The notes under the pieces were generated by a model. The model did no database searches. It was not told where the DNA came from and saw only the letters and a list, made by a program, of their open reading frames with translations. This document shows positions 3,362 through 43,216 of a stretch of DNA of 64,000 nt, piece by piece. The stretch is from the NCBI GenBank assembly GCA_018653365.1, contig JABIAG010000001.1:326951-390950 (forward strand), given 5' to 3'. Position numbers and translations under genes: made by a program. The stretch is from Candidatus Woesearchaeota archaeon (GTDB taxonomy: Archaea > Nanobdellota > Nanobdellia > Woesearchaeales > JABIAG01). Every line of letters begins with the position of its first letter. Position 1 is the stretch's first letter.

Positions 3362-4537
3362 ATGGCATTTGAAAATGGAATATTTACTTCTGAAAGCGTA
3401 ACTGAAGGACATCCTGATAAGGTATGTGATCAAATTTCTGACGGGGTAGTTGATGCAGCGCTAGCACAAGATCCTGGAGCGCGAGTTGCGTGTGAGACCT
3501 CAGCAAAGGGAAATAATGTACTTTTGGCAGGAGAAATAACTTGTGATGGTGAGTTTGATGGAGAAATGATAGTAAAAAGCACTTTGGAAGACATTGGATA
3601 TGACCGAGATGAATTTGGAACAAACTGGGAAAATACCCAGGTTACACAATGGTTGACACAACAATCTCCGGATATTTCACAAGGTGTATCTTTAGGACAA
3701 GGCTTGTATGAAGAACAAGGTGCGGGCGATCAAGGGATGATGTTTGGATATGCATGTAATGACACTCCTGAATTAATGCCTTTACCAATTGCATTAGCTC
3801 AACGGCTAGCAAGACGATTAACCGACGTGAGAAAAACTAATGTAGTGGGGTATTTAGGACCTGATGGAAAATCACAAGTATCTGTTGTGTATAGTGCGGG
3901 AAGACCTGTAAGATTATCAAATGTTGTAATTTCAACACAACATCTTCCTGATGCAGAACACGGTCAAATAGTTGAGGATATGGCAAATTATGTAATCTCT
4001 GAGGTGTGTCATGGATGGATGGATGATGATACAATAATTCATGTAAATCCTACTGGAAGATTTGTATTGGGGGGACCTTTTGCAGATGCTGGATTGACCG
4101 GAAGAAAAATTATAGTAGATACCTATGGTGGAATGGGAAGGCATGGAGGGGGAGCATTTTCAGGAAAAGACCCTTCTAAAGTAGACCGTTCTGGAGCTTA
4201 TGCAGCAAGATTCATTGCAAAAAATGTTGTCGCAGCTAACTTAGCTGATAAGGCTGAAGTCCAAATAGCATTTGCTATAGGTGTAGCAGATCCTGTCTCT
4301 ATAGCAATCGAAACATATGGAACCGAACGTGTGTGTCCGGAAAAGCTAGAACGTGTTGTGAGGGAAACTTTTCCTGTGAAACCTGCAGATATACTGAGTC
4401 ATTTTGATTTAAGAGAACCACATCAAAATGGGTGGTCTTATAAGGACACTGCAGCATATGGACATTTTGGAAGAACTGATGTTGCGTTTCCTTGGGAAAG
4501 TACAGAAAAGGTAGCAGAATTAATTCGGAGATTTTAA
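3362..4537 (+). CDS. metK: S-adenosylmethionine synthetase, bacterial/eukaryotic type
   Basis: 391 aa. N-terminal FTSESVTEGHPDKVCDQISD, GHPDK signature, and the C-terminal glycine-rich MetK motifs. Confidence 0.9.
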   Translation: MAFENGIFTSESVTEGHPDKVCDQISDGVVDAALAQDPGARVACETSAKGNNVLLAGEITCDGEFDGEMIVKSTLEDIGYDRDEFGTNWENTQVTQWLTQQSPDISQGVSLGQGLYEEQGAGDQGMMFGYACNDTPELMPLPIALAQRLARRLTDVRKTNVVGYLGPDGKSQVSVVYSAGRPVRLSNVVISTQHLPDAEHGQIVEDMANYVISEVCHGWMDDDTIIHVNPTGRFVLGGPFADAGLTGRKIIVDTYGGMGRHGGGAFSGKDPSKVDRSGAYAARFIAKNVVAANLADKAEVQIAFAIGVADPVSIAIETYGTERVCPEKLERVVRETFPVKPADILSHFDLREPHQNGWSYKDTAAYGHFGRTDVAFPWESTEKVAELIRRF

Positions 4538-5689: not shown

Positions 5690-7582
5690 TTAAAGCTTTT
5701 TCGCTTTCATCTCTTTAACAACCCGTTTAGCAAACTCTTCACTCTTAACAGCACCCTCAACCTGATTATCTCTGGTTCGTACAGTAACAGTTTTATCCTT
5801 AATTTCCTTTTCACCAACAACTAAGATATAATTATAATGTTGAAGTTCAGCATCCCGTACTTTTCTTGAAATACTCTCGGTTCGACCATCTACATCCGCC
5901 CTAATTCCCACTTCACGGAAAGATTGAGCAACCTTGTCAGCATATTCTTGAAATCGATCTGCCACAGGAAGAATCACAACCTGATTTGGATTTAACCATA
6001 ATGGAAACTTGCCAGAATAGTGTTCAACTAAAATTCCCATAAATCTTTCTAAACTACCATACACTGTTCTGTGAAGCATGATTGGACGGTGTTTTTTACC
6101 ATCTTTACCTTCATAAGACAAATCAAAGTTTTCAGGTTGAGCCATATCAAACTGAATTGTTCCACACTGCCAAGTTCTACCAATCGCATCCTTTAAATGA
6201 AAATCGATTTTAGGACCATAGAATGCACCATCTCCTGGATTAAGCGTGTAATCTATCTTAACCTTTTCTAGTGCTTTTTTAAGAGCATCTTCAGCAATCT
6301 TCCATTGTTCGTCAGTTCCAATACTTTTACTTGGGCGAGTTGAAAGTTCAACACTATACTCAAAACCAAATAGCTTGTAAAACTTATCTTCTAGGTTAAT
6401 GATATTGATAATTTCTTGTTCAACCTCTTCAGGAGTTGAATAAATATGTGCATCATCCTGAGTGAACACTCTTACTCTAAATAATCCATTAAGAACTCCT
6501 GACTTTTCATGACGATGAACAGTGCCAAGCTCACCAACTCTCATTGGTAAATCGCGGTATGAACGGATCTTAGTTTTGTAGATAAGCATTCCTCCCGGGC
6601 AGTTCATTGGTTTGATTGCATAGTCTTCATTATCAACTTTAGAGATATACATGTTTTCTTTATAATTATTCCAATGTCCAGATTGTTCCCACAAAAATTG
6701 TTTTAACATAATTGGAGTTTGAATTTCAACATAACCTGCTTTGGTGTGTTCTTTTCTCCAATAATCTACCAAAGTGTTCTTAATTACCATGCCTTTAGGA
6801 TGAAAAAAAGGAAAACCTGGACCTTCTTCATGAAAACTATACAAATCAAGATGCTTACCTATCTTAATATGATTACGTTTTTCTGCCTCTTCTAACAAAT
6901 TCAAATGTTGTTTTAGGAGTTTCTTATCTGGAAATGCAATACCATAAATTCGTTGCAAAGAATCATTCTCTGCATTACCCTTCCAATAAGCAGCAGAAGT
7001 TTTTGTTAACTTAATTGATTTAATGTATTTAGTGGACGGAACGTGCGGTCCTCTACACAAATCTCGAAAGTTATCATTAGTGTAAATAGTTAAATTATCT
7101 TTGTATTCTTGAATAAGCTCAAGTTTGTATTTATTATCCTTAAACATGTCTTCCGCTTCGCTCTTAGAAACTGAAACCTTAACAAAAGGAATATCTGCTT
7201 CAATAATTTCTTTTATCTTAGCTTCAATTTTTTCAAGATCTTCAGGTCTAAATGGTTCTGAAGCAAAGTCATAATAAAAACCATTATCTATTGCAGGGCC
7301 CATAGTTAGCTTAGCATCCGGATACAAACTTTTAACAGCCATAGCTAAAATGTGGGCAGAAGAGTGCCAGAATACCTGTTTGCCCTCTTCATCATTGAAT
7401 GTTAATATTGATACTTTAGAATCTTCAGTAATTGGAGTTGTTAAATCAGTAGTGGTATCATTAATTTTAATCGCTAAAGCATCTTTAGCTAATCGTTCAC
7501 CAATACTCTGCGCAACTTCTAATCCAGTAATTCCTGAATCGAATTCTTTTTTACTTCCATCGGGAAATTCTATATTTATCAT
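5690..7582 (-). CDS. thrS: threonyl-tRNA synthetase (bacterial-type, with N-terminal TGS domain)
   Basis: 630 aa. TGS-like N-terminus (MINIEFPDGSKKEF). Class II aaRS core, and an editing domain with HxxxH/CxxxH motifs. Confidence 0.9.
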   Translation of the reverse strand: MINIEFPDGSKKEFDSGITGLEVAQSIGERLAKDALAIKINDTTTDLTTPITEDSKVSILTFNDEEGKQVFWHSSAHILAMAVKSLYPDAKLTMGPAIDNGFYYDFASEPFRPEDLEKIEAKIKEIIEADIPFVKVSVSKSEAEDMFKDNKYKLELIQEYKDNLTIYTNDNFRDLCRGPHVPSTKYIKSIKLTKTSAAYWKGNAENDSLQRIYGIAFPDKKLLKQHLNLLEEAEKRNHIKIGKHLDLYSFHEEGPGFPFFHPKGMVIKNTLVDYWRKEHTKAGYVEIQTPIMLKQFLWEQSGHWNNYKENMYISKVDNEDYAIKPMNCPGGMLIYKTKIRSYRDLPMRVGELGTVHRHEKSGVLNGLFRVRVFTQDDAHIYSTPEEVEQEIINIINLEDKFYKLFGFEYSVELSTRPSKSIGTDEQWKIAEDALKKALEKVKIDYTLNPGDGAFYGPKIDFHLKDAIGRTWQCGTIQFDMAQPENFDLSYEGKDGKKHRPIMLHRTVYGSLERFMGILVEHYSGKFPLWLNPNQVVILPVADRFQEYADKVAQSFREVGIRADVDGRTESISRKVRDAELQHYNYILVVGEKEIKDKTVTVRTRDNQVEGAVKSEEFAKRVVKEMKAKKL

Positions 7583-7629: not shown

Positions 7630-8235
7630 TTAATTATTGAGGGAATAGCGTAATTCAATTTCAGCTATTTCTGCAATACGCTCATTAAGGGTTTCAGTAC
7701 TTAAAACTGGAAATCCATGTTTTGAATGACTGAAGGAAGCTCGTGGAGTGTTTAATTGGTCCATTCTTTCAGAAAGTTTGCTTGCAGTAGCGTACTGTGT
7801 TTTTGCACGTTCAAGAACGATTCTGCTTCTTTCATTATGGCCGCGAGTTTCAAGTGTATGAGCAAGTCTCATATTATAAAGAGCAGCATGACAAATTCCA
7901 CTAAATTGAAGTACGATCGCTTCATCAATGTTTGCCTCACTTGCACCTTTACTTCTTAATTTGGCTTCTGCAATACGTGCACGAGCCCAGGCAGTTTTAA
8001 ATTTTTGAACTGCTAAAGCGGTATGTTCAATACAGTCTTTTGTAGAAATGTAGCCTGTAGGAGTGGCTTTTCCTTCCCCAATAAGCTGACCAATACCATC
8101 TAAACAGACATCATAACGTGGTTCAACTCGCTCTTGTTTAGGTGTTGCAGGTGTTGCAACTTCTTCAACTTTTGGAGCACAGCCTGTTAAAAAGGTAATA
8201 AGTCCTAAGCTTGTTATTAATCGTCTATTCATCAT
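7630..8235 (-). CDS. putative lipoprotein, hypothetical (composition-atypical)
   Basis: Signal peptide with lipobox-like LTGC. A/R-rich mature protein with 4 Cys. Last gene of a 3-gene operon, overlapping the upstream gene by 1 nt. Confidence 0.45.
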   Translation of the reverse strand: MMNRRLITSLGLITFLTGCAPKVEEVATPATPKQERVEPRYDVCLDGIGQLIGEGKATPTGYISTKDCIEHTALAVQKFKTAWARARIAEAKLRSKGASEANIDEAIVLQFSGICHAALYNMRLAHTLETRGHNERSRIVLERAKTQYATASKLSERMDQLNTPRASFSHSKHGFPVLSTETLNERIAEIAEIELRYSLNN

Positions 8236-8975
8236 TATCTCCAGACTAATGTGTCAACATTGTCTCTTTTTCCCTCGGTGTGACCCGCTTCTATAAGGGT
8301 ACTTAACGTCCAATTTGGCGCGGATGATATTTTTGAGCCAGTCTCACTAAAAGTTTTAGCCTTACCTGTATAGGTTCGATTCTCTCCTTCGGGAGAGGTA
8401 ACCTCTACAGAATAACTAAATGTAGATCCCATTTGGTTTCCAATAAGTGTTTGCTCGGGTTTGTTAGAGTGAATTGTAAGTGTTGCATTAGGAAATTCAA
8501 ATTTTTGACCATCTGCGGCAGCCATAATTAAGGGATCTAAATAAAGCATCCAAGATCTAATTCTTATTCTTCTTCGATCTTCTTCTGGTTGACGTTGATA
8601 AGCCTCGGTGGCAGTATATGCTGGAACTAGATGTGTTAGTGCCGCAGCACATCTTCGCCAATTATTTGTAAGTAGACTGGAGTCTACTTCGTTTTCTAAA
8701 GATGTAAGTAAATGAAATTGGGGTGATTGAGTGTTAGAAACATTAACAAGTTTAGCATATTGGGAAGGGTCCATTGGATTTTTGAGTTCATCACCTTTAA
8801 GACAATTATGATGAAAGTTTCCCCAAGCAAGCGCGGTTAAAATTGGTGCAGAAACAGCAACGATTACGCTTCCGATTGTGAGATTTCTTCTAAATATTCT
8901 TTTTTGCTCTGCTTTTTCTTCTGCTTGATCTCTTCGTTGAGCTTCTCTGCTTCCTGGACTAAATTCTTTATGCAT
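8235..8975 (-). CDS. membrane-anchored hypothetical protein (one N-terminal TM, large extracytoplasmic domain)
   Basis: 246 aa. Charged N-terminus, then TM LTIGSVIVAVSAPILTALAW. Composition-atypical. Confidence 0.4.
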   Translation of the reverse strand: MHKEFSPGSREAQRRDQAEEKAEQKRIFRRNLTIGSVIVAVSAPILTALAWGNFHHNCLKGDELKNPMDPSQYAKLVNVSNTQSPQFHLLTSLENEVDSSLLTNNWRRCAAALTHLVPAYTATEAYQRQPEEDRRRIRIRSWMLYLDPLIMAAADGQKFEFPNATLTIHSNKPEQTLIGNQMGSTFSYSVEVTSPEGENRTYTGKAKTFSETGSKISSAPNWTLSTLIEAGHTEGKRDNVDTLVWR

Positions 8976-8980
8976 TTTAG

Positions 8981-9385
8981 TTACCCCATTGAGTTTTCAC
9001 GAGCCCAATTTTCTTCATTAGGATCTCTATATTCACTTAAGTAACCCATCATACGTCTACCTACTTCTCCACTAGATGCATTTGCTGTTGCTTCTGCAAC
9101 ACAAAGGTTAACACCTCTTGGAATTACTACGGATTCTTCTTTGGGTACTTGAATTCCATATGCTTCTGCAATTCTTAAAGCATCTGATCTAAATCTAGGA
9201 TCGGTAATGTATTCGGTTATAAATAATTGTGCCATTTCATGATTTGGTAATCTTTGTTTAAGTGCACTTTTAAGGTTTACAACTGCAACGACTGGACTAC
9301 CAAGAACGGTATCTCTATCAACACTTCTTTCTAATTTAAGTTTTAGTTGTCTGGCCCGTTCGGGGTCAAATTTTGTGTTTGCCAT
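8981..9385 (-). CDS. hypothetical cytoplasmic protein (first gene of a 3-gene operon)
   Basis: 134-aa ORF, R/A-rich, no motif recognised. Preceded by a GC-rich palindromic leader. Confidence 0.4.
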   Translation of the reverse strand: MANTKFDPERARQLKLKLERSVDRDTVLGSPVVAVVNLKSALKQRLPNHEMAQLFITEYITDPRFRSDALRIAEAYGIQVPKEESVVIPRGVNLCVAEATANASSGEVGRRMMGYLSEYRDPNEENWARENSMG

Positions 9386-9419
9386 TTTGTGTATGTTTTA
9401 TTTTTTTTAAGTATAAAAA

Positions 9420-9545
9420 GGTTCCGTGCACATTTGAATGTACACGGAGATGTTTGAAAGTGGGTTTGCCCGGAAGAAATCGAGTGTGGGGGGATCAATT
9501 CCGGGCGACAAGCCTAGGCTTGTACCTATTAGTAGGTAGTGAATA
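9420..9545. other. GC-rich intergenic segment with four hairpin-forming palindromes (candidate structured RNA or operator cluster)
   Basis: TCCGTGCACATT/AATGTACACGGA, GCCCGGAA(23 nt)TTCCGGGC, CAAGCC-TA-GGCTTG, TACCTA-TTAG-TAGGTA. All lie within a divergent promoter region. Confidence 0.3.
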
Positions 9546-9626
9546 ACTGATATATAAATGTTTTGCTTTTATGCTACTATTGAGTGGTAAATCTTATTTA
9601 TATAGTTGTTTTTGAAATAATGCCCT

Positions 9627-10253
9627 ATGGTATCTGTTTTACGAGAATCTATTGGGGCTTTAGATAATATTGGATTCTTAAACGTACTATTGCCTTTCAT
9701 ATTTGTATATTTGATTGTGTTTGCTTTATTAGAAAAAACTAAAGTACTGGGAATAGAGAGAAATGGAAAATCAAAGAAAAATCTTAACGCAATGGTGTCA
9801 TTTGTACTGGGATTTGTATTTATTGCATCTACATCTCATGTAGTTAGTTTACTGCTTTACTTACAAATATTGGGAATGGCATTAGTGTTTGTAATGGCAT
9901 TACTTTATGGATTTGCAGCATTTAAGGAAGACAAGGCGTTTGAATTCAAAAATTTCATTTATGTAGTTGTGTTAATCTTCATAATTGTCGCATTCTTTTA
10001 TGCAATGGGCTTCCTTAACAACGCAAAATGGGATTTTGTACTAGAATTAATATTTAACCCAGTAGTTATTACTGTTGTTTGTTTTTATCTAATAATCATG
10101 TTCGTAACTGGTGGTGGGAAGAAGAAGGCGGGTACGCGTGGTGCAACAAGCAGTAAAACAGAAAAAGGTTATGTTGAAAGTATTGGTGAGAAAAAAGAAG
10201 AAGTTGATCATGCAGCTAGGGGTTCAGACTCTTCGGATGAAGAATCCTCTTGA
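9627..10253 (+). CDS. polytopic membrane protein with an acidic Ser/Asp/Glu C-terminal tail
   Basis: About 5 predicted TM helices. C-terminus ...ARGSDSSDEESS. Confidence 0.45.
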   Translation: MVSVLRESIGALDNIGFLNVLLPFIFVYLIVFALLEKTKVLGIERNGKSKKNLNAMVSFVLGFVFIASTSHVVSLLLYLQILGMALVFVMALLYGFAAFKEDKAFEFKNFIYVVVLIFIIVAFFYAMGFLNNAKWDFVLELIFNPVVITVVCFYLIIMFVTGGGKKKAGTRGATSSKTEKGYVESIGEKKEEVDHAARGSDSSDEESS

Positions 10254-11317
10254 GGTTCGGTTTCCGCAGGTTCTTCTGCTGGAAAGTCTATTGGTTCTGG
10301 AGCTTCGGGATTATCTTGGGGTGTTTCTTGGGGGGCTTGATTTTGTTGTAATTGGGCTTGTTGATCCATAAAACTATCCCAATGATCTTTACTGAATGCA
10401 ATTACTGGCTTACCATCTGTGGTTTGAAGTCTTTGGCTTGGAAGCGGAAAGCTCAAACATTTTTTGATATTTTCTGGAGTGTCATGGAAAGCAACAAATT
10501 TTTCTCCATTCTGGCCAGGTAATACGAATGGTCTGGATTTATCTTCATTAAATTCTTCTGGAGCTAAACGTTCTGCCTCTTCGTAAATCTTGCTAACAGA
10601 AACCTCGTAGATGGTATCTTTTGCTCCTTCGTGTAGTATAAAATATGCTGAACCTCGTTTTTGTTGAGTATAAGAACGTACTGTAGTTATGCCATCTTCG
10701 TTAGTGGTCTGGGGTTTGTGAGCATGACCACATAAGTTAATTAAGGGACGTTTAGCTGCCCGAGCTTTTGCTTTCTTATTTAATTTAGAATTGTAACTTG
10801 TTTTACCTGCACAACTTTCAGGGGTAATACCTTCGTGAGTAACAATCCAATCTGCCTTGTTTAATTTATCATCGAGAGTGGCTTCTCTTTCTTTAATTGT
10901 GCTATGTCTGTCTTCTTTTCGATTAAACACATTTCCAGATGAATGAGATATACCATAAACATTTCGACCATTGATTCTGTATGTTTTATCTTCTGCATCA
11001 AGAAAGGTCATGTTGGTAATCACTTCTCTTGCTTCGGGACAGTCGTTATTTCCTAAAACGCCATAAACCTCGGCGTCAAATTTACCTAGTTCTTCATTTA
11101 TTGCTTCATATTTTGGTCGACGTGAATCTATTGCTTCTGCAGGATCTAAAACTCCCTGTTGTACGCCCATAAATGCTTCGTCTTTACTTGAGAAATTACC
11201 ACCATGAATGACTGTGTGTTTGCCTTTGGATATCTTGTTAATGTGGTTACTAACTATTCTATACCTTTCTAAGAATCCACTGTCGTGATCGTCGGAAATA
11301 AATCCAGTGATGGCCAT
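10208..11317 (-). CDS. calcineurin-like metallophosphoesterase
   Basis: Motifs DDHDSG, GNNDCPE, GHAHKPQ. Acidic Pro/Glu-rich C-terminal tail. Confidence 0.6.
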   Translation of the reverse strand: MAITGFISDDHDSGFLERYRIVSNHINKISKGKHTVIHGGNFSSKDEAFMGVQQGVLDPAEAIDSRRPKYEAINEELGKFDAEVYGVLGNNDCPEAREVITNMTFLDAEDKTYRINGRNVYGISHSSGNVFNRKEDRHSTIKEREATLDDKLNKADWIVTHEGITPESCAGKTSYNSKLNKKAKARAAKRPLINLCGHAHKPQTTNEDGITTVRSYTQQKRGSAYFILHEGAKDTIYEVSVSKIYEEAERLAPEEFNEDKSRPFVLPGQNGEKFVAFHDTPENIKKCLSFPLPSQRLQTTDGKPVIAFSKDHWDSFMDQQAQLQQNQAPQETPQDNPEAPEPIDFPAEEPAETEPQEDSSSEESEPLAA

Positions 11318-11415
11318 GTGCTTAGTGACGTAGAACTAATATATAAATGTTTTGATTCTGTTGTCACTTTCAAGTAGTTATGCGAAAGATTTAAATAGTA
11401 ATCTGTGTTAATTCG

Positions 11416-12051
11416 TTGGATATGTTATACCTGGCAGTGAGACACGAAGGAAAAGAAGTTGGAAGAAGAGAGCTTGCTGAGAGAGTTATGATAAGTATGC
11501 GTGAAGGCGCAGCTTCTAGTGTAGGGGAATGTGTAAATGAATCTGACCGGTTGATTTTACCTTACGATCAACATGTGGGGGTATTAACACATGCATTAAT
11601 TGGGGTTGTAATTCCGAAAAAAGATGTTGCTTCTTTTATGCCTATGTTTGATGTTAAAACAATTCCTTTGCGTGTAGGTTATGAAAGAGTTAACGGAACT
11701 AACGTGAGAAATGTGGGAAATAATTGGGTGGCTTTAGATGGAAACGATACTATTGTTATGAGTGTGAAAGGAAAGCATCAAAGGACTTTGGTGAATGTTT
11801 TTGATTGGGATTTTATTCTGAATTATGAACCAGATCCCTTGCCGTTGGTTGTTGAAACACCAGCTTCATCAGAAACACAACACATGGATATTTCTGAATT
11901 GGGACTAGAAGTTAGACAACCTGTGGGAGATTCTCCTATGTCTAGAACACGACGAATGAATGTTGAAGATTTTAAATCTAAACCGCATATCTCAAGATGG
12001 CAGCGACTTTGCCAATATCTTTCAACTGTGCACCTTCCCGGGTCTCGGTAG
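11416..12051 (+). CDS. hypothetical protein (composition-atypical)
   Basis: 211-aa ORF. The 3' end converges on and overlaps aRF1 by about 74 nt. No motif recognised. Confidence 0.3.
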   Translation: MDMLYLAVRHEGKEVGRRELAERVMISMREGAASSVGECVNESDRLILPYDQHVGVLTHALIGVVIPKKDVASFMPMFDVKTIPLRVGYERVNGTNVRNVGNNWVALDGNDTIVMSVKGKHQRTLVNVFDWDFILNYEPDPLPLVVETPASSETQHMDISELGLEVRQPVGDSPMSRTRRMNVEDFKSKPHISRWQRLCQYLSTVHLPGSR

Positions 12052-15901: not shown

Positions 15902-17128
15902 ATGAAATTTGCACATTTAGCAGACTGCCATATTGGTGGATGGAGAGATGAACGATTAAAAGATCTGAATTTAACAGCTTTTGTCACATCAATAGATAAA
16001 TGTATTGAGAAAAAAGTTGATTTTATTCTAATAAGTGGAGATTTATTTAATACATCCATACCAGGAATAGATAAATTAAAAGAGTGTGTAAAATGTTTAC
16101 GTAAACTAAGACGACAACAAATTGCAGTTTACATAATTGCAGGTAGTCACGATTTCTCCCCTTCAGGAAAGACAATGCTAGATGTACTAGAAGAAGCAGG
16201 ACTGGTTAAAAATGTTGTAAGTGGCGAAGTTGTAGAAGATAAACTGAAGTTAAAGTTTACCATCGATGCTAAAACAGGAGCAAAAATTACAGGAATGTTA
16301 GGAAAAAAAGGAATGCTTGAAAAAAGTTATTACGAAAATCTAGAAGTTTCAAATTTAGAACAAGAAGAGGGATTCAAAATATTCATGTTTCACACAGCAA
16401 TAACCGAACTCAAAACAAAAGAGATGGAAAACATGGACTCTGCACCAATTTCATTATTACCTAAAGGATTTGACTATTATGCTGGAGGACACGTACATAT
16501 TGTTAATAAGTTCCATTTTGATGATTATAATCACGTCGTTTATCCAGGACCAACATTTCCCAACAATTTCGGAGAACTAGAAAAACTAAAAAAGGGGGGT
16601 TTTTATCTTTACGAAGATGGATTAATATCATATGAACCAATTTCTGTTTGTAACGTATTCTGCATAAAAAAAGACTGTACTGAAAAATCTCCTGAAGAAA
16701 TAGAGGCCGAACTAAGAAGGGAGGTGTTAGAAAAAACATTTGACAACACAATCGTGCTAATTCGACTAAAAGGAACGTTGAAAACAGGCAGGCCATCTGA
16801 TGTAAACCTTAATGAAATTATTAAATTACTTTATGACAAATCTGCATTATTTGTGATGAAAAATACTAACGCACTAGAATCAAAAGAGTTTGAAGAGGTA
16901 AAAGTACAAGAAAGTTCTGTAGAAAAAGTAGAAGCAAAACTAATCAAAGAACATCTGGGACAGAATAAAGATCTAGGACTGGATGTTGAAAAAGAAGAAG
17001 ATCTAACAAAAGAACTAATCCAAGCACTATCTGAAGAAAAACAGGAAGGTGAGAAGGTTTACGAATTTGAATCTAGAGTTAAGAAAAATGCGCGAAGTGT
17101 TATAGCAAAAGAAATATTTCAGAATTAA
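15902..17128 (+). CDS. Mre11/SbcD-like metallophosphoesterase nuclease
   Basis: Motifs HLADCHIGG, DFILISGDLF, AGSHD. No Rad50-like ATPase adjacent. Confidence 0.6.
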   Translation: MKFAHLADCHIGGWRDERLKDLNLTAFVTSIDKCIEKKVDFILISGDLFNTSIPGIDKLKECVKCLRKLRRQQIAVYIIAGSHDFSPSGKTMLDVLEEAGLVKNVVSGEVVEDKLKLKFTIDAKTGAKITGMLGKKGMLEKSYYENLEVSNLEQEEGFKIFMFHTAITELKTKEMENMDSAPISLLPKGFDYYAGGHVHIVNKFHFDDYNHVVYPGPTFPNNFGELEKLKKGGFYLYEDGLISYEPISVCNVFCIKKDCTEKSPEEIEAELRREVLEKTFDNTIVLIRLKGTLKTGRPSDVNLNEIIKLLYDKSALFVMKNTNALESKEFEEVKVQESSVEKVEAKLIKEHLGQNKDLGLDVEKEEDLTKELIQALSEEKQEGEKVYEFESRVKKNARSVIAKEIFQN

Positions 17129-17496
17129 CCTTGTTGGGCTAAGGAGGCAAGAGTTAACATGCCGGCAAGAGAACTTACTGTGCTTTCGAGAGCAGGCGAA
17201 AGACGTCTGAACGCAACTCCGCTTTTTTCACAAACCTCTGCTAAAACTTCTTCAGTTCTTGCCTTAGTTGGAGCGGAAACAGTAAGTAACAAAATGTTTC
17301 CCGTTTGTGGTAATCTAGTCATACTAACCATATAACCGTGTTGTTCTGTGCCTCGTCTAACACAACAACCGTTATATCTTGGAAATTGTCCGTCAAGCTC
17401 TTCAAAATTAGGCTCGTATCTAGCAAGAACAGTTCTAACATCTGTTGGGTCATCGGAAACTCTAATTCCTATATTCGGTATTGGCATGATTGTCAA
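17125..17496 (-). CDS. hypothetical protein (composition-atypical)
   Basis: 123-aa ORF. Convergent 4-nt overlap with the Mre11-like gene. Confidence 0.35.
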   Translation of the reverse strand: MTIMPIPNIGIRVSDDPTDVRTVLARYEPNFEELDGQFPRYNGCCVRRGTEQHGYMVSMTRLPQTGNILLLTVSAPTKARTEEVLAEVCEKSGVAFRRLSPALESTVSSLAGMLTLASLAQQG

Positions 17497-23257: not shown

Positions 23258-23353
23258 GCGGGCCCCACGAGATTCATGTCATCACTTCACTTCGTTTCGT
23301 TCTGGACGAATCTCTAAGTCCCTTAAAAGAATTTGGCGGGCCCCACGAGATTC
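23258..23353. repeat. 18-bp perfect direct repeat GCGGGCCCCACGAGATTC (copies at 23258-23275 and 23336-23353); the second copy is the 3' end of tRNA-Lys
   Basis: Both copies read directly from the sequence. att-core-like duplication of a tRNA 3' end, with 78-bp spacing. Confidence 0.7.
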
Positions 23354-23426
23354 GAACTCGCAACCTTCCGATTTCTTTTTTTAAAATTAAGAGTCGGATG
23401 CTCTAACCAGATTGAGCTAGAGGCCC
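23334..23426 (-). tRNA. tRNA-Lys (anticodon CUU) with an intron of about 15 nt at the canonical 37/38 position; CCA encoded
   Basis: Reverse complement folds as acceptor GGGCCUC/GGGGCCC, D-stem GCUC/GAGC, anticodon stem UCCGA/UCGGA with loop CUCUUAA interrupted by AUUUUAAAAAAAGAA, T-arm GCGAG-UUCGAAU-CUCGU, then GCCA. Confidence 0.8.
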
Positions 23427-23533: not shown

Positions 23534-23580
23534 ACACAACATCTTGTGGTTTGAAACTGTTAGAACACAACATGTTGTAG
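23534..23580 (+). promoter_or_regulatory. two tandem NrdR-box-like 16-bp palindromes (ACACAACATCTTGTGG at 23534-23549; ACACAACATGTTGTAG at 23565-23580), 31 bp start to start, upstream of nrdR-nrdD-nrdG
   Basis: Matches the bacterial NrdR box consensus acaCwAtATaTwGtgt. Spacing of about three helical turns, as in bacterial NrdR operators. Confidence 0.55.
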
Positions 23581-23690
23581 TAACTGTCCAGTAGGACAAA
23601 CCAATTACTTTCCTTGGGTGAGTCTTAGGAAACACATAAATTCGGTCTCTCGCGTCATGCGAGAACCATTAATTATTAAGGAGATAAAAG

Positions 23691-24137
23691 ATGCGATGCC
23701 CATACTGTTTAAGTGAAAATACGAAAGTTGTAGATAAAAGAGATAGTGAAAACTTTACTAAAAGAAGAAGAGAATGTCTAAAATGCAAAAAGAGATTTAC
23801 AACACACGAACGAGTAGAAAGTGTTGATATGATTGTAGTGAAAAAAGCGGGCGAAAGAGAACGTTACGATCGAGACAAAATAAAACGAGGATTAATTAGA
23901 GCATGCGAAAAAAGACAAATTACGCTGGAACAAATTGATGATACTTTAGATAAAATAGAAACCGAATTAAGAAAATCAAACTCTACAGAAATACCCTCTT
24001 CCAAAGTCGGTAATGTAGTAATCAAATATTTAAAAAGATTAGATAAAGTAGCATACATACGATTCGCATCAGTTTACAAAGATTTCAAAGATGTAGAAGA
24101 ATTTCAAGAAGAACTAAAAACACTATTAAAGAGGTAG
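23691..24137 (+). CDS. nrdR: transcriptional repressor NrdR (zinc ribbon + ATP-cone)
   Basis: N-terminal MRCPYC...CLKC zinc ribbon, followed by an ATP-cone. 148 aa. Confidence 0.85.
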   Translation: MRCPYCLSENTKVVDKRDSENFTKRRRECLKCKKRFTTHERVESVDMIVVKKAGERERYDRDKIKRGLIRACEKRQITLEQIDDTLDKIETELRKSNSTEIPSSKVGNVVIKYLKRLDKVAYIRFASVYKDFKDVEEFQEELKTLLKR

Positions 24138-24144
24138 AGAAAAA

Positions 24145-27100
24145 ATGGCACCAGCACCACTAACAGTTGTAAAAAGAAAAAAACCCTGGGAAACAGAAAC
24201 TCGGGAAGAGGGTTATGATTCTGAAAGAATAATAGTTGCAATGCAATGCTCATTTCATGAAAAAGGAAAACAGGTTTCTGAAGACCAATTAAGAACAATG
24301 CTTCCAGCAATAGAAACAAGGTTAAAACCTACTAGAGCAGGAAAGGTGCACCGAGCTGCAATAGATCGAGCAGTAGTGGCGGTATTAAATGAATCTATGC
24401 ATGAAGAGGTGGCAGCGGAATATAAAAATTATGCAGAAACAAGATTAAAAGAATTACGAAGAATTAAAATCAAACCAGATGCAAAAGGATCAAACGCAAC
24501 AGATGCAATGTTATTAATTGAGAGTGCATCAAGTGGTACAGCATCACCTTTTGATAAGCATGCCATCTCAAAATATTTAAGAAGATCTGGCGCAGAAATG
24601 CCTGAACACCTAATTAAGAGCGTGGCAAGCGCGGTAGAAACCGATGTTCGAGAATGGATTAATGATGTTAAGGAAGATGGAGAAGTACTAGAATTAACTA
24701 CATCTGAAATACATGCACTTGCAACAGCAGAACTAATTAAACATGGAGTAAATCCTCAAGAACTTTTTGCTTCAAGAAACTTTGTGGTATCAAGAGAAAA
24801 TATAGATATGTTGATGGGCAGCAAATCTAATGAAAATGGAAATGTCAATTCAAACAATCCAGAAGCAGTTAATCTAGAAATTGCTGAATGGGTATTAAAA
24901 CGATGGGCACTGAGTTCCATATTTGAAAAAGATGTACGAACCGCACACGATGCTGGAGCAATGCATGTACATGATCTTGGGTATCCTCATAGGGTGTACT
25001 GTTCAGGACATTCACTAGAATATATAAAAAAATACGGACTAAGAGACCTACAAAACTTATCAACAAGATCATCTCCTCCAAAACACGCAATAACCTTAGT
25101 TGGACACACATCAACATTCTTGGCATCAATGCAAGCATATTATGCAGGAGCGTTAGGGATGGCTTATGTGAATCTAGCTTTTGCACCATTTCTAGAAGGT
25201 ATGTCGAGAACAAATGTTGGAAGAGTAAAAGAGGAAGTATTGGCCGCTCTTGTAGGGGATCAGAGTTTGCATGGACGATTATCAAGCTATCTTGGTGCTG
25301 CTGAAGATTGGAAAAGAGTTTCTGGAGAGTTAGCTAATCGAAGTGTATCTGATTCAGATTTAGAAACAATAGTGGGTTCGGTTTCAACAAAATTAGAGGG
25401 TAAACCAGAACTAGAACAATTTATGACTTTAGTTAATGATTATCGAGACATGCGAAGACAGGCAAAAGAACTGAATGCAATGTTAACAGACCCAACTCTT
25501 GTTGGAAGTTTAATGGAAGATATTCTTGAACGATTTGAGGGCAATGACGTGTTATCAGACGAATTCCAACGATTAATGGTACAATATACTGACATGAAAC
25601 AAATAGCGCAAAATTTTGTTTTTACACTATCACAATGCGCATTCTCTAGAGGAAGTCAAACAATATTCACTGATGCAAACTTACATACTGGAGTGCCAAC
25701 TGCACTGAAAGATATACCTATAGTAGTTCCAGGGGGAAGATATAGATTAATAGATAAAGAAACTGGAGAGACTGAAGATTTGCGAGCAAGAAAAGAACCA
25801 ACAAGTAAAGATGGGTTCATATATACTGATTCCGAAGGAAATGTATTCTTAGATGGTGAAGGAAATTTTAATTACAAACTTGCAAAAGAACAAGGAAGAC
25901 GATTTGTAACTTATGGAGATTATGAAGAGACCTCACAAGAATTTCTAGAAGCATTACTTGATGTTTACATGGAGGGAGATGAAATAGGAATGATGTTCCC
26001 ATTCCCAAAATGTGACGTACATGTAGATGCCAATACCTTCAAACACGAAAGACAAAGACAACTATTAAGAAAAACATGTGAAGTGGCAGCTAAAAATTCA
26101 AGCGCATACTTTATCTTTGACAGAGATGCAGTAACCCTTGCTGCATGTTGCAGATTAAAAACTGCAGTAGACCCAAAAGCATTAGAACATCCCGAATCAT
26201 TAAGATTTTGTGGATTCCAAAACGTAACCATAAACGTTCCACAAGCATCATACCGAGCAGCAGAAGCTGGAAATTTAAATCTTGATGGAATTATTGATGA
26301 AGTTTTAGAAACCATGGAAACAGCACTTCAAGCTCATATCCAAAAAAGAGTAAAAACAGAAGAATTAATGCAACCAGGAGGACCATTGCACCAAATTGGA
26401 AAACCAAGCATGGATGGAAATCCTTATGTTGACTTAGATAAAGCAACATACATAGTTGGAATGATTGGAGTAAATGACGCTGTCAAATTATTGACTGATT
26501 CTGAATTGCATGAAAATGAGGAATCAATGCAGGCAGGATTAGAGATCATTGCTGCAATGTATCAAAAAGCAAAAGAGATGAGTGAAAGAACAGGATGGAA
26601 AATTTCCCTAGAAGAAAGTCCTGCAGAAAGTGCAGCAAGAAACTTAGCATTAAGAGACTTACGTCATCCTGTTTACGGAAAATACGCAAAACAGGTAATA
26701 CAAGGAACTGAAGAGGACCCATACTATACAAACTCTGTACACCTAAGAGCAGATGCAAAAGATGTAGGCCCAATAGAAAGAATACAAAAACAATCAATGT
26801 TCCACCCAGTAATAGAATCTGGGGCAATTATCCATTTATTCACGGGCGAAGCAGATATAGATCCAGATGCATTATATGATTTAGTACAAAATATTTACGA
26901 AAATACACAATGTGCACAAATAACTGTATCTGGAACACATTCATTCTGTCCAGGATGTGGAACCCAAACAAGAGGAGAAGCGTTTGAATGTCCAAGATGT
27001 GGGACAGAAACAGATGTAATGCAAAAAGTTGTTGGATACAATTCTAAAATGGTAAATTGGAATGGATCAAAACGAAGAGAATCAGAGGCAAGAGGAAGAG

Positions 27101-27591
27101 GAAGTTATGCTGCAGATGCATCTGAATGTATTGCAAAAGGAGACGATCTTGCTGAAGCATTAATACCCGGACAACCCGCAGTAAAAGCAGTAGTATATGG
27201 AATAAAACATCACCATCATTGTGACTGGTGTGAAGACCTGAATGATGCAGTAACCAAATTGGTAGGAAACAATTACAAAGGAAAAGTAGATGTAGAATTT
27301 GTAGATGTAACTGCACCAGGAGTAGAGGGAAGACAAAACTTAGCAAGAGCAATGCGAGCAGGTATAAATATGGGTACTACTCCCGGAGTGGGATTCGAAT
27401 ATAATACTGAAGGAATTCCTAGGCCCGTAGATACCGTGCGACCTTTAGAAACAGAAAGTCTTGTACGACAAAATAGAGAAACTGGACACTTAGATGTGAA
27501 ATATAAATTTCTAGACAAAGCCGGAGCTCCAAAAGTAAGAAAAGCACTTGACGCGGTTCTTGCAGAAGCAGAAAGATATCTCACAACATAA
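24145..27591 (+). CDS. nrdD: anaerobic ribonucleoside-triphosphate reductase (class III, NrdD) with a C-terminal thioredoxin/NrdH-like extension
   Basis: Zn site CPGCG...CPRCG. Glycyl-radical motif KVVGYNSKMVNWNGSKRRE (RxxGY...N.GK..E). An extra C-terminal domain of about 180 aa carries HHHHCDWC, then a TPGV cis-Pro-like motif. Confidence 0.8.
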   Translation: MAPAPLTVVKRKKPWETETREEGYDSERIIVAMQCSFHEKGKQVSEDQLRTMLPAIETRLKPTRAGKVHRAAIDRAVVAVLNESMHEEVAAEYKNYAETRLKELRRIKIKPDAKGSNATDAMLLIESASSGTASPFDKHAISKYLRRSGAEMPEHLIKSVASAVETDVREWINDVKEDGEVLELTTSEIHALATAELIKHGVNPQELFASRNFVVSRENIDMLMGSKSNENGNVNSNNPEAVNLEIAEWVLKRWALSSIFEKDVRTAHDAGAMHVHDLGYPHRVYCSGHSLEYIKKYGLRDLQNLSTRSSPPKHAITLVGHTSTFLASMQAYYAGALGMAYVNLAFAPFLEGMSRTNVGRVKEEVLAALVGDQSLHGRLSSYLGAAEDWKRVSGELANRSVSDSDLETIVGSVSTKLEGKPELEQFMTLVNDYRDMRRQAKELNAMLTDPTLVGSLMEDILERFEGNDVLSDEFQRLMVQYTDMKQIAQNFVFTLSQCAFSRGSQTIFTDANLHTGVPTALKDIPIVVPGGRYRLIDKETGETEDLRARKEPTSKDGFIYTDSEGNVFLDGEGNFNYKLAKEQGRRFVTYGDYEETSQEFLEALLDVYMEGDEIGMMFPFPKCDVHVDANTFKHERQRQLLRKTCEVAAKNSSAYFIFDRDAVTLAACCRLKTAVDPKALEHPESLRFCGFQNVTINVPQASYRAAEAGNLNLDGIIDEVLETMETALQAHIQKRVKTEELMQPGGPLHQIGKPSMDGNPYVDLDKATYIVGMIGVNDAVKLLTDSELHENEESMQAGLEIIAAMYQKAKEMSERTGWKISLEESPAESAARNLALRDLRHPVYGKYAKQVIQGTEEDPYYTNSVHLRADAKDVGPIERIQKQSMFHPVIESGAIIHLFTGEADIDPDALYDLVQNIYENTQCAQITVSGTHSFCPGCGTQTRGEAFECPRCGTETDVMQKVVGYNSKMVNWNGSKRRESEARGRGSYAADASECIAKGDDLAEALIPGQPAVKAVVYGIKHHHHCDWCEDLNDAVTKLVGNNYKGKVDVEFVDVTAPGVEGRQNLARAMRAGINMGTTPGVGFEYNTEGIPRPVDTVRPLETESLVRQNRETGHLDVKYKFLDKAGAPKVRKALDAVLAEAERYLTT

Positions 27592-27592
27592 A

Positions 27593-28315
27593 ATGAATTT
27601 TGGTAACATATCTTCATCAGTGGATTTAGTCAGTTTCAGTAATGCAGAAGAACCCACAACAGTTCTATTTTATCAGGGATGCAATTTTGGGTGCGGGTAT
27701 TGTCATAATAGCAACTTATGGCATGCCGAGGACGATACGCTAACTGAAAAAGGATTAAACGCAGTACTTTCAACTGCAAGAAGCAGATGGGTAAAGCTCG
27801 TGAACGTTTCTGGGGGAGAGCCAACAGAACAATTTGGTAATTTATGGGATCTAACTGGTTATTTGAAACAACAAGGTTTTAAAGTAAAACTTGATACAAA
27901 CGGAAGTCATCCCGAAGTTCTAGAAACCTTACTTGAATATGCTTTAGTAGATTATGCTGCGATGGACATTAAAGGAACACTGGCACAGTATCCAGAAATA
28001 ACTGGGTTTAGTGATGTTGAAAAAATAAGAAACTCAATAGAGTTAGTACAATTTATGGGCAATCAAGGATTTGGTTACGAATTCAGAACAACAGCAGTTC
28101 CTGGCATTCATGGTGAATCGGAAATAAGGGAGATTGGGGAGATGTTACGCGGATCAAGAAGATATGCAATACAACAATTCAGACCTGATCTAGATGGGGG
28201 ATGCTTAAACCCCCAATTTTGCAAGAAAGAATCCTATCCTGGTGAAACATTAAGAGAGTTTGCAGAAGTAGTAAAAGACGATTTTGAAACAGTAATAGTT
28301 AGAGCAAGAGATTAG
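27593..28315 (+). CDS. nrdG: anaerobic RNR activating enzyme NrdG (radical SAM)
   Basis: CNFGCGYC (CxxxCxxC) motif. Start taken at the ATG immediately after the nrdD stop (the ORF track start 27548 overlaps nrdD). Confidence 0.85.
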   Translation: MNFGNISSSVDLVSFSNAEEPTTVLFYQGCNFGCGYCHNSNLWHAEDDTLTEKGLNAVLSTARSRWVKLVNVSGGEPTEQFGNLWDLTGYLKQQGFKVKLDTNGSHPEVLETLLEYALVDYAAMDIKGTLAQYPEITGFSDVEKIRNSIELVQFMGNQGFGYEFRTTAVPGIHGESEIREIGEMLRGSRRYAIQQFRPDLDGGCLNPQFCKKESYPGETLREFAEVVKDDFETVIVRARD

Positions 28316-31505: not shown

Positions 31506-33209
31506 ATGGGGGATGAATCTTTGTCGGGAATGAACGCTTCAGTACAACAAACATATATTTCTTTAGATGAAAGAGCAGAACAAGTCTATCATAGTATTCT
31601 AGAAGGAAGTCCCGAGTTTGCATTGTGGATAACAACTCCAAAACAAATAACCTTTAATGATGAACAAAAGATGCAGATATTATTCTCAAATGCGTTAACA
31701 GCAGAAATGGCTTTGAAACGTTATGAGGAAGCATTAAGTGCAGCAGCAAGAAGAACAGGGAACTTTTCAGGAATGGATGTGCCGAGAGTTAGTAAGCTAT
31801 GTTATGATGCAATAGCACCAAAAGCTGATGAAACAGTTCCTGAGCCAAAACCTCGAAGAAAAAGTGAAATAAGTGCAGAAGGCCATTATGCTAACACCGA
31901 TTTTGAAGCGGCATTAGCAAAACTAACTGTGAGAGGTGCAATAGACCGATCAGAATACTTTCGTGGTGATTATAATGGAAGAGCATTTGCAAAGGGTATG
32001 GCCGTAATAGATAGTTTAAGATCAAAAAAAGCCATACGAAGAGCACTAAGAATCGTTGGCGATAACAGTTCAGGAAAAACAACTCTTCTAATGTACCTTG
32101 CGACCGTAGCAATAGAACATGGATTGACTCCTTTTTATTTAGATTTAGTGTACTTAGCAGATCAATATGATGCAATGGCAAAAAGTCCAACTAAGCCAAC
32201 AAAAGAAGACTGGGCAAAGGTGAATTACAGTCCACAAGCACAAGCAGCAGATCTGATCTTATTAGATGGTTGGGAAGGAATAATGAAAAAAGGGGATCCT
32301 AAAACAAATCAGGGGGCTCAAAGAAAAGCCCTTGAACTAACTAATGCAGGTTTAAGTAGAGGAAAAGGAGTTGTAATGGCATATTCCGGAGATGTGGCAA
32401 GCTGGGTTAAAATGATTGAAGGATTAAAAATTTTGGGAACCCAACAACCTGATGAACATTTTAGACATCTGTCAGCAAGAATGTCACGAGCAAGTCGCGC
32501 TGAATTACGTTATCCTTCTGTAGAAGAGAGACCTGATTTTATAAAAGATGCAATCCTTTCACTTACTGCAAGATGTAACGGACAATTAGATGAAGTTGCA
32601 GCACATTTGGACGGGATTTTAGGAAGAAATGCTGATCCTGGAACAATCATGGCAAATGTGGAAGATCTAGTGGACGAAGCAGATGATGAAGATTGTGAAA
32701 TAGACTTAGAATTTATCAAAGCAATATTGGGTGATGATCCAATCTTGGTGGAAGTCCCAGGACAAAGAGAGGATGCTATAAATGCATTAGTATTTAGAAC
32801 AGCTTTAGACGCTATAGGTTTACCAAAAAGTTATGTGACTGGGAAAGGACGAGAACCTACAAGAGTGAGAGCAAGAAATATGTTGTTAGCAGCAAGAAAA
32901 GCCTATACTGGTATGACTACTGCCGAACTAGTAGATGATTTACCAATAGGAAGAGCAACAGTAACACATAGTTTGAATAGTGTGGAAGAACAAGTGGGGG
33001 CAAATGACTTAGATGGATTCTTAACTCACATAGGTGCAACTCTTTTCGCAGCAGGATATAAAGATGTAGAACGAAAACCAATAACTCCTGGAAAAAGAGA
33101 TAAAAAACAACCAGCTACACAAACAAAACCAGTTAATGCAGGGTCTGGCGATCTTGGATTGAGTGGAAATGTTTCAGATGTTAAGGGAGGAAGTATTTTT
33201 CGTCGTTAA
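31506..33209 (+). CDS. P-loop NTPase with DnaA domain-IV-like C-terminal HTH (DnaA-like protein); composition-atypical
   Basis: Walker A GDNSSGKTTLLMY. Walker B-like LILLDGWEG. C-terminal GKGREPTRVRARNMLLAARKAYTGMTTAELVDDLPIGRATVTHSLNSVEEQ aligns with DnaA domain IV ([48 protein letters not shown]). Confidence 0.5.
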   Translation: MGDESLSGMNASVQQTYISLDERAEQVYHSILEGSPEFALWITTPKQITFNDEQKMQILFSNALTAEMALKRYEEALSAAARRTGNFSGMDVPRVSKLCYDAIAPKADETVPEPKPRRKSEISAEGHYANTDFEAALAKLTVRGAIDRSEYFRGDYNGRAFAKGMAVIDSLRSKKAIRRALRIVGDNSSGKTTLLMYLATVAIEHGLTPFYLDLVYLADQYDAMAKSPTKPTKEDWAKVNYSPQAQAADLILLDGWEGIMKKGDPKTNQGAQRKALELTNAGLSRGKGVVMAYSGDVASWVKMIEGLKILGTQQPDEHFRHLSARMSRASRAELRYPSVEERPDFIKDAILSLTARCNGQLDEVAAHLDGILGRNADPGTIMANVEDLVDEADDEDCEIDLEFIKAILGDDPILVEVPGQREDAINALVFRTALDAIGLPKSYVTGKGREPTRVRARNMLLAARKAYTGMTTAELVDDLPIGRATVTHSLNSVEEQVGANDLDGFLTHIGATLFAAGYKDVERKPITPGKRDKKQPATQTKPVNAGSGDLGLSGNVSDVKGGSIFRR

Positions 33210-34233: not shown

Positions 34234-34280
34234 TTCCACATCGTTCCAATCGTTCCACTCAACCTATTTATATAGTTCCA
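34233..34280 (+). promoter_or_regulatory. four direct GTTCCA(C) repeats (34233, 34243, 34252, 34275) flanking a TTTATATA TATA box; candidate operator/iteron array
   Basis: Read directly. Spacings of 10, 9 and 23 bp. The TATA box at 34266-34273 lies between repeats 3 and 4. Confidence 0.45.
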
Positions 34281-34304
34281 CCTTTCTAATTTTTATTAAA
34301 AATT

Positions 34305-42661: not shown

Positions 42662-43216
42662 ATGACTACTACAGACGCTGATGCACAAGTTCGTTTTCCA
42701 GGTATGGGAATAGCAAGTGAAGAAAGACTTGCGAGAACGGCTGAACTTTTTGGCGAAGTATTCTTAAATTATTGTGCAGGACTTGTTGGAGATGAACAGG
42801 CTTCTGATCTATATCAAGATGTTTTCCAAACAGCAGTAGAACAGACTGATAGTCTAGGCCCAGATCAAGACGCGCTAATTTGGCTTCGTAATATGGCTCG
42901 AAACAGAGCAAGAGGTTATCATAAATCTCGTGAAATGCAGCTAAAACGTTTTGGCGAAGCAGATGAAGCTGATCTTTCAGATGAGGGATTAAGTCCGCGT
43001 GATATGGCACAAAGATCAGACTTACATAACGCAGTAAGAGCACAAGTAGATGCTTTACAACCCACTTACCAAGAAGCAATTAGACTAACACTTTTAGAAG
43101 GTCATTCACAAAGACGGGCAGCAGAACTGGCAGGTTGTTCTCCAAGTACAATTCAATACAGAGTAGGAAAAGCAAAAGAGGCATTAAGAACCAGTTTAGG
43201 TCAAATTCTAGATTAA
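42662..43216 (+). CDS. ECF-type sigma-70 family protein (regions 2 and 4); composition-atypical
   Basis: Region 2-like ASDLYQDVFQTAV...WLRNMARNRARGYHKSR. Region 4-like YQEAIRLTLLEGHSQRRAAELAGCSPSTIQYRVGKAKEALR. Confidence 0.65.
   Translation: MTTTDADAQVRFPGMGIASEERLARTAELFGEVFLNYCAGLVGDEQASDLYQDVFQTAVEQTDSLGPDQDALIWLRNMARNRARGYHKSREMQLKRFGEADEADLSDEGLSPRDMAQRSDLHNAVRAQVDALQPTYQEAIRLTLLEGHSQRRAAELAGCSPSTIQYRVGKAKEALRTSLGQILD

Follow-up and report, generated by a model that had tools for sequence, protein, structure and literature searches.

The 64-kb window analysed here, i.e. the whole stretch taken from contig JABIAG010000001.1 of a Candidatus Woesearchaeota genome, derives from an AT-rich archaeon (~34% GC) and encodes archaeal release factor 1 (aRF1), together with a geranylgeranyl-reductase-like gene and a tRNA-Lys gene that contains an intron. 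Between the genes for p208 and threonyl-tRNA synthetase (ThrRS), it contains a non-coding block (9398-9588) and three minus-strand open reading frames (ORFs), the products of which are named HN592_02460/65/70 at NCBI (Table 1). The three ORFs lie exactly where a first-pass annotation of this DNA had placed them and are packed as tightly as described there: 5 nt separate the stop codon of gene 1 from the ATG of gene 2, with a GGGGT ribosome-binding site ahead of gene 2, and genes 2 and 3 overlap by 1 nt (TAATG), with a GGAG ribosome-binding site 5' of gene 3. The ATG of gene 1 has no Shine-Dalgarno (SD) sequence. Together, the three genes make up a real operon-like group whose envelope-type products cannot be recognised, but the feature that deserves most attention at the locus is a small RNA candidate, unclassified and under strong constraint, within the non-coding block upstream of them.

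Table 1. Coordinates of the features at the locus and gene orders in the two lineages (L004, sister-lineage locus)
Feature	Position	Strand	Description
Candidate structured RNA	9415-9527 (~109-113 nt)	minus	Start ~9527 (+/-2), end in the U-tract 9419-9415
Palindrome 1, TACCTA-CTAA-TAGGTA	9523-9538	minus	Straddles the predicted start; 4/6 pairs in L004
Hairpin H2, ACAAGC-CUAG-GCUUGU	9508-9523	minus	5' hairpin of the RNA; perfect 16-bp palindrome
Hairpin H3	9468-9506	minus	8-bp lower stem, 2x2 internal loop, 4-bp upper stem, 11-nt C-rich loop
Linker AAACCCACUUUCAAACAUCU	9448-9467	minus	Unpaired; second C-rich motif
Hairpin H4 and 3' end	9415-9447	minus	Hairpin 9447-9424, then AACC and U5 at 9419-9415; terminator-like
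Promoter module	9545-9588	minus	TATA box TTTATATA at 9558-9551, A-rich stretch resembling a transcription factor B recognition element (BRE), 16-mer ACCACTCAATAGTAGC at 9588-9573; conserved in L004
Promoter twin	11328-11378	minus	Precedes the 369-aa metallophosphoesterase gene (10208-11317, leaderless); 86% conservation in the L004 lineage
Operon TATA-like box TTTTTATA	9412-9419	minus	Overlaps the U-tract of the RNA
Gene 1	8981-9385	minus	134-aa soluble protein; matches itself only; coding pattern of GC content by codon position (GC1>GC2>GC3)
Gene 2	8235-8975	minus	246-aa protein; N-terminal transmembrane anchor, predicted helical and beta regions
Gene 3	7630-8235	minus	201-aa lipobox (LTGC) protein; Pro/Thr/Glu linker, long-helix bundle core
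Gene order, window			aRF1, p211, p369, p208, non-coding block, 134-aa, 246-aa, and 201-aa genes, ThrRS
Gene order, L004			aRF1, 275-aa phosphoesterase, p208, extra 183-aa ORF, non-coding block, 246-aa homologue, ThrRS

The loci around the flanking ThrRS gene were fetched from species-representative genomes (GTDB scan), and one of them, L004 (CAYRWJ010000002.1), represents a sister lineage. The amino acid sequence identities between the window and L004 are 87% for aRF1, 86% for p208, and 67% for ThrRS; synonymous sites are saturated (synonymous substitutions per site, dS, 1.1-1.7), and coding DNA is 71.5-84.6% identical, with a value of 81% for the aRF1 gene. The non-coding block is the best-conserved segment within the ~19.6 kb of synteny, being 88% identical over 191 nt and 93% identical over a 130-nt core. 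The genes that flank it differ on both sides: it lies between p208 and the 134-aa gene in the window and between the 183-aa ORF and the 246-aa homologue in L004. A single metagenome scan with the invariant motifs of the RNA recovered only the same lineage, as L047. A search of six further DPANN loci with a covariance model, the filters being switched off, was negative; its best match lay inside an ORF. Several public contigs of metagenome-assembled genomes labelled 'Methanosarcinales', 'Muribaculaceae', or 'Paceibacterota' carry this Woesearchaeota-like ThrRS gene, and since L004, labelled Methanosarcinales, is evidently closely related to the window organism, the labels look wrong.

The block also stands out in composition and folding. 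Its segment 9446-9525 (53.7% GC) ranks first among 770 intergenic 80-nt segments (mean 32.9%, standard deviation 7.0) and exceeds the tRNA-Lys gene in GC content, and the minus strand folds with a z-score of -7.1 relative to shuffles of the single sequence. The GC-rich upstream region with four palindromes reported in the first-pass annotation is thus present in full; the palindromes comprise 9423-9448 (12-nt arms, 92% matched), 9468-9475/9499-9506 (8/8), 9508-9523 (a perfect 16-mer), and 9523-9528/9533-9538 (6/6).

On the minus strand, the consensus computed by RNAalifold from the two lineages recovers the same three hairpins (H2, H3, and H4) as the single-sequence fold, and all three keep their pairing in L004. 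In six of seven cases, substitutions in the stems preserve pairing (one compensatory double change and four wobble-type changes), the remaining one being a break at a loop edge. In H2, a C-G pair is replaced by U·G, which pairs only in the minus-strand RNA; H3 contains the compensatory change (C-G to U-A) and a change from G·U to A-U; and H4 contains two wobble-type changes that keep pairing on the minus strand only. The G·U pairs exist solely in RNA of this strand, whereas the plus strand would give two or three C·A mismatches. The unpaired parts are constrained as well: the C-rich loop of H3, CCCCCACACUC (9492-9482), is invariant and unpaired in both lineages and occurs once in the window (0 expected by chance), and the first 17 nt of the linker, AAACCCACUUUCAAACA, are invariant, with the C-rich stretch beginning AAACCCAC unpaired in both lineages. 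In addition, RNAalifold predicts a 4-bp terminal helix between the 5' AGGU (9527-9524) and ACCU (9422-9419). These data support the presence of a functional structured RNA-level element upstream of the operon and on its strand. The covariation statistics, which had been proposed as a check, are weak, i.e. suggestive rather than decisive, because they come from two sequences.

The putative limits of the RNA were deduced from the gene-expression signals of the window. In 16 genes, the 3' edge of the TATA box TTTATATA lies 20-24 nt ahead of the ATG (mode 22), indicating that first genes are leaderless as a rule in the window, and internal or leadered genes carry GGAGG-like SD sequences (GGAGG/GAGGTGA). 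Applying a spacing of 22 nt to the TATA box in the block places the start of the RNA at ~9527. Palindrome 1 therefore straddles the start and is probably outside the RNA, and its pairing is indeed not conserved. The 16-mer CAAAACATTTATATAT enclosing the TATA box occurs twice in 64 kb, here and at 11339-11354, the second copy being the promoter of the 369-aa gene, which is leaderless and has exactly 22 nt between TATA and ATG. The module common to the RNA and the 369-aa gene extends over ~45 nt (an upstream 16-mer, ACYACTYRAWAGTRRC, plus CAAAACATTTATATAT), and since this extended module is shared and both copies are kept in the sister lineage, the sequences suggest that the RNA and the metallophosphoesterase gene may be under a common regulator.

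Transcription termination in archaea needs no hairpin. In the window, sense-strand runs of at least six T residues are depleted inside genes (23 observed vs 46+/-6 expected), and sense-strand T-runs are 4.4 times denser downstream of stop codons; oligo-T thus behaves like a terminator in this organism, as it does elsewhere among the archaea. At the 3' end of the candidate, the hairpin followed by T5 was flagged as terminator-like by a terminator-type scan. The TATA-like box TTTTTATA ends 26 nt before the ATG of the 134-aa gene and, in L004, 24 nt before the ATG of the 246-aa homologue. The earlier designation of the block as the 5' leader of the operon is therefore doubtful: the block does lie upstream and on the same strand, but the operon has a TATA-like box of its own at 26 nt and its first gene lacks an SD sequence.

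The three proteins encoded downstream were, as stated previously, not recognisable. Searches against Pfam, NCBIfam, PHROGs, PADLOC, and PDB sequences gave no match for any of them, and in a set of 5.8 billion clustered proteins none has a match besides itself; when the 201-aa protein was run in full against 1.84 billion representatives with HMMER, only the protein itself and a short low-complexity linker repeat were returned. Their assignment to soluble, N-terminally anchored, and lipobox types is borne out by the sequences. At the N-terminus of the 246-aa protein, a charged stretch precedes a single hydrophobic helix; the single-sequence AlphaFold2 (AF2) model of this protein was unusable (predicted local distance difference test score, pLDDT, of 45). 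The N-terminus of the 201-aa protein, MMNRR-LITSLGLITF-LTGC, contains, as read from the sequence, a positive n-region, a hydrophobic h-region, and the lipobox pattern [LVI][ASTVI][GAS]C. AF2 gave a moderately confident long-helix bundle for residues 65-160 of this protein (pLDDT 72-87), and a Foldseek search with this model, one of the checks suggested earlier, returned no significant match, only generic helical bundles (best E ~0.1, to designed helical proteins).

The predicted signal of the 201-aa protein is the same as that of archaeal lipobox proteins of the Haloferax model (AliA/AliB pathway; PMC12462473, PMC2945643), with n- and h-regions and LTGC, whereas the mature domain of this predicted lipoprotein differs and has no relatives. 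Predictions indicate that lipoproteins are prevalent among DPANN archaea, in which AliA has been reported 'with some gaps' (PMC12462473). Given this prevalence and a second lipobox protein encoded in the window at 15427, the lipobox is a native rather than an exotic feature.

The contigs read that carry the trio represent one near-clonal organism, and the co-occurrence check otherwise revealed no genome with all three genes. The genes for the 134-aa and 201-aa proteins are absent from L004, and the 246-aa protein, the only member of the trio with a homologue, is 40-42% identical to its L004 counterpart (54% nucleotide identity; ratio of nonsynonymous to synonymous substitution rates, dN/dS, ~0.48), with the common motifs CAAAL.HL.PAYT and YLDPLIM.A.DGQ.FEFP.ATLTI.SN.P. 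By this comparison, the 246-aa gene is a real but fast-evolving gene, and the trio, of which the only relative retains the middle gene alone, is not a conserved module. Most likely, the three genes constitute a real but poorly conserved, lineage-specific operon.

The atypical composition ascribed to the three genes is real but mild (z ~1-2). They are Ala/Arg-rich, with a ratio of arginine to arginine plus lysine, R/(R+K), of 0.59-0.68 vs a mean of 0.31 and a GC excess in codon positions 1 and 2; their GC content at third codon positions (GC3), however, is 0.17-0.23, equal to the host value (mean 0.22), which leaves no sign of foreign codon usage. Recent horizontal transfer, as judged by codon usage, is thereby ruled out; an older transfer, with third positions ameliorated since, may have occurred but would not be demonstrable. 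About 10 ORFs besides the trio belong to the same Ala/Arg-rich class (R/(R+K) >= 0.5) with host-like GC3, including those for the bacterial-type MetK and for NrdD; examples are 1907-2530, 3362-4537, 17125-17487, 24145-28315, 31506-33209, 42662-43216, 46870-47427, 61828-62280, and 63399-63812. In the ~20 kb comparable with L004, a homologue is present for one of seven Arg-rich genes vs nine of 14 ordinary genes, which makes Arg-rich composition a marker of the accessory, fast-turnover fraction of the genome.

Because the element is better conserved than the genes, has different flanks in the two lineages, and has its own promoter and a terminator-like end, we interpret 9415-9527 (minus strand) as an independent gene for a ~110-nt small structured RNA rather than as an operator or leader, with a probability of roughly 55%. 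Of the earlier proposal that the operon has its own operator or riboregulator, a structured RNA-level element on the same strand remains, but this element looks independent of the operon. The RNA would be transcribed from its own consensus BRE/TATA promoter (TATA 9558-9551, start ~9527); would fold into three hairpins, namely a 5' hairpin, a long hairpin whose C-rich loop is invariant, and a 3' hairpin, the last two being separated by a single-stranded C-rich linker that is also invariant; and would end, at least partly, at the U5 tract past the 3' hairpin. The downstream genes would form a separate leaderless operon with a TATA-like box overlapping this U-tract, in which internal SD sites and the TAATG overlap would couple the translation of genes 2 and 3. 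The operon products would be lineage-specific, fast-evolving (soluble, membrane-anchored, and lipobox-anchored), and probably cell-surface proteins.

The conservation of the block, its strand, the substitutions that preserve its pairing, the promoter and terminator motifs, and the failure of the trio to be conserved together are observed; we infer from them that a discrete transcript is released and acts in trans. RsaE/RoxS-type small RNAs (sRNAs) of Bacillota (Rfam RsaE) mask Shine-Dalgarno sequences (PMC2790875), and the likeliest mechanism, by analogy with them, would be the pairing of the unpaired C-rich segments with G-rich SD-like sites; a role as a protein-binding structural RNA is equally open. 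The candidate resembles these sRNAs in length (~100-114 nt), in having a 5' hairpin and a 3' terminator hairpin with a U-tract, in containing two conserved unpaired C-rich motifs as its most conserved parts, and in forming a GC-rich island within AT-rich DNA. Sequence motifs of the kind that would delimit a discrete transcript, a promoter and a terminator, are present and conserved at the locus. The candidate differs from RsaE in showing no sequence or covariance-model similarity, in its archaeal host and TATA/BRE promoter, in its C-rich motifs (CCCCCCAC and ACCCAC vs UCCC), and in having no SD-containing target above chance in the 64-kb window. The resemblance is an analogy of architecture, not membership of the family.

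Several observations weigh against an independent RNA gene. The comparison involves two lineages with one true double change, and a shuffle control with n = 2 was uninformative. An RNAduplex scan of the ~54 initiation regions in the window gave a best value of -16.6 kcal/mol, which falls in the 1-2% tail of random windows and is within chance, and the RNA has no Rfam family match and no functional anchor. The T5 tract is probably leaky, since 106 sense-strand runs of at least five T residues occur inside genes, and some read-through into the operon is therefore likely. At 26 nt, the spacing of the TATA-like box of the operon slightly exceeds the usual 20-24 nt, and AT-rich DNA contains many TATA-like strings. 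Finally, the RNA adjoins and is co-oriented with the 246-aa family, which lies on its downstream side in both lineages, an arrangement that fits a cis role. The last three points also favour a cis-acting 5' leader (an attenuator, a riboswitch-like element, or a protein-binding leader), in which transcription would start at ~9527, H4 with U5 would serve as a conditional terminator, and the read-through mRNA would carry a ~140-nt structured leader. Bacterial attenuators and riboswitch platforms likewise have a structured region followed by a hairpin and U-tract directly upstream of an operon, and the C-rich segments could in principle sequester the G-rich SD sequences of genes 2 and 3. The candidate differs from these platforms, however, in matching no known aptamer and no Rfam cis-regulatory family and in preceding an operon that seems to have its own leaderless promoter: the first gene has no SD sequence, in contrast to the leadered genes here, and TATA-like motifs stand at the leaderless distance in both lineages. 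Moreover, the first downstream gene differs (the 134-aa gene in the window and the 246-aa homologue in L004), and synteny is conserved overall in any case; the element is 88-93% identical vs 54% nucleotide identity for the 246-aa gene; and no conserved antiterminator (alternative) pairing was identified. We consider a leader less probable than a separate RNA gene, but it is the main rival reading.

Action of the palindromes at the DNA level, as operators for dimeric transcription factors or as an origin or integration site, would agree with the perfect 16-bp palindrome and the several other dyads, with the compensatory change, which keeps the symmetry of the DNA dyad too, and with the extended promoter module common to a second gene, which suggests a common regulator. 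Dyad-binding proteins, however, do not explain the invariance of the 11-nt loop and of 17 of the 20 nt of the linker, which are not palindromic, and four transitions create G·U pairs on one strand only, changes that in DNA dyads would simply break the symmetry. The dyads are located downstream of the TATA box and the start rather than over them, their motifs are single-copy in the window, and neither an Orc1/Cdc6 gene nor an integrase gene is present within +/-10 kb, which together make such action highly improbable. We also regard as improbable a horizontal acquisition of the three genes as an envelope system working together, with the RNA as an incidental neighbour. The tight operon with translational coupling, the combination of cytoplasmic, membrane-anchored, and lipobox proteins, the correlation of Arg-rich composition (shared by the bacterial-type MetK) with lineage-specific gene content, and the presence of other bacterial-type genes in the host (ThrRS and nrdR-nrdD) are consistent with acquisition. 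Against it, the genes do not co-occur, the sister lineage keeping the 246-aa gene only; no donor is visible, as no homologue exists elsewhere among the 5.8 billion proteins; GC3 is host-like; no defence-system or phage family was matched (PADLOC and PHROGs); and lipobox proteins are native to DPANN archaea. The horizontal acquisition envisaged in the first-pass annotation is thus not borne out by codon usage.

Several other identities of the block were examined and rejected. Known RNA families (tRNA, split tRNA, 5S RNA, signal recognition particle RNA, RNase P RNA, C/D and H/ACA RNAs, Hgc/SscA RNAs, T-box, and riboswitches) gave no match by ARAGORN or Rfam in either copy. At the gathering thresholds of Rfam 15, only tRNA-Lys (23337-23426) was found in the window, and a permissive search (E <= 10) of positions 9300-9700 and of L004 8990-9260 returned unrelated sub-threshold matches, none of which occurred in both copies. 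Inspection by eye revealed neither C/D boxes nor an ACA-flanked pocket, nor any K-turn that would remain intact after the G39A change. A small protein-coding gene is contradicted by a stop codon in one frame of L004, the lack of a start codon in the other, and substitutions without codon periodicity. A repeated or mobile element or an origin is likewise contradicted, as the motifs and the covariance model gave a single copy and no viral-contig or plasmid match was found; in a test for a replication origin (origin recognition box dyads beside orc1/cdc6), the motifs were single-copy and no member of the Orc1/Cdc6 family was present within +/-10 kb. The tRNA-Lys(CTT) gene (23334-23426, minus strand), the sole RNA gene of the window found by standard tools (ARAGORN and Rfam), has a 17-nt insertion past the anticodon loop that corresponds to an archaeal-type intron.

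GC peaks are reportedly a signature of non-coding RNA (ncRNA) genes in AT-rich archaea (Klein, Misulovin and Eddy, 2002). HgcC/E/F/G and SscA, which are GC-rich ncRNAs of AT-rich archaea, share with the candidate a local GC peak, stable structure, an own promoter, and an oligo-T end; the candidate differs in having no Rfam match even at E <= 10 and in its mesophilic DPANN host.

The extra ORF of the sister lineage, located between p208 and the RNA (L004 8430-8981, minus strand; L047 5072-5623, plus strand), encodes a 183-aa protein with a hydrophobic segment at its N-terminus and a coiled-coil-like region rich in Lys and Glu. In view of this ORF, the DNA on either side of the RNA seems to be a hotspot where small lineage-specific genes are gained or lost. 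Elsewhere in the window, the 211-aa ORF at 11416-12051 (plus strand) is an Arg-rich orphan with a TTG start and a 74-nt opposite-strand overlap with the 3' end of the aRF1 gene; it is publicly annotated as a gene but absent from L004, and its coding status is uncertain. The ThrRS gene (5690-7582, minus strand) is of a bacterial (Clostridia-like) type, and its identities of 50-59% to many Bacillota ThrRSs and 67% to the sister archaeal lineage indicate that it is probably an old acquisition from bacteria. The nrdR-nrdD operon (23691-27591, plus strand) for anaerobic ribonucleotide reductase is also of a bacterial type within this archaeon, and its SD-bearing leader (23560-23690) is relatively GC-rich and moderately structured (z = -2.3). 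At 34234-34290 (plus strand), four GTTCCA(C/A) direct repeats flank the TATA box 5' of an S-layer-like gene (34320-36218; S_layer_C and CARDB domains), just past the gene for a helix-turn-helix-domain protein (33265-34233); judging from their arrangement, the repeats are probably a transcription-factor binding array.

DPANN archaea are uncultivated and host-dependent and have tiny genomes, and to our knowledge almost nothing is known about their regulatory RNAs. The impact of the present finding is limited, because the RNA occurs in two closely related lineages only and no function is assignable to the RNA or to the three proteins. Nevertheless, an RNA that is better conserved than the aRF1 DNA between the two lineages must do something important, and it is a concrete, testable candidate. 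The locus also illustrates how the 'dark' envelope gene content turns over fast around stable non-coding and housekeeping anchors. Tentatively, the RNA may be a clade-specific regulatory RNA, not described before, of DPANN archaea (Woesearchaeota), a new cis attenuator or an RNA that masks G-rich ribosome-binding sites in an RsaE-like manner, which would control fast-evolving surface proteins, possibly involved in host-cell contact, and would be co-regulated with the metallophosphoesterase.

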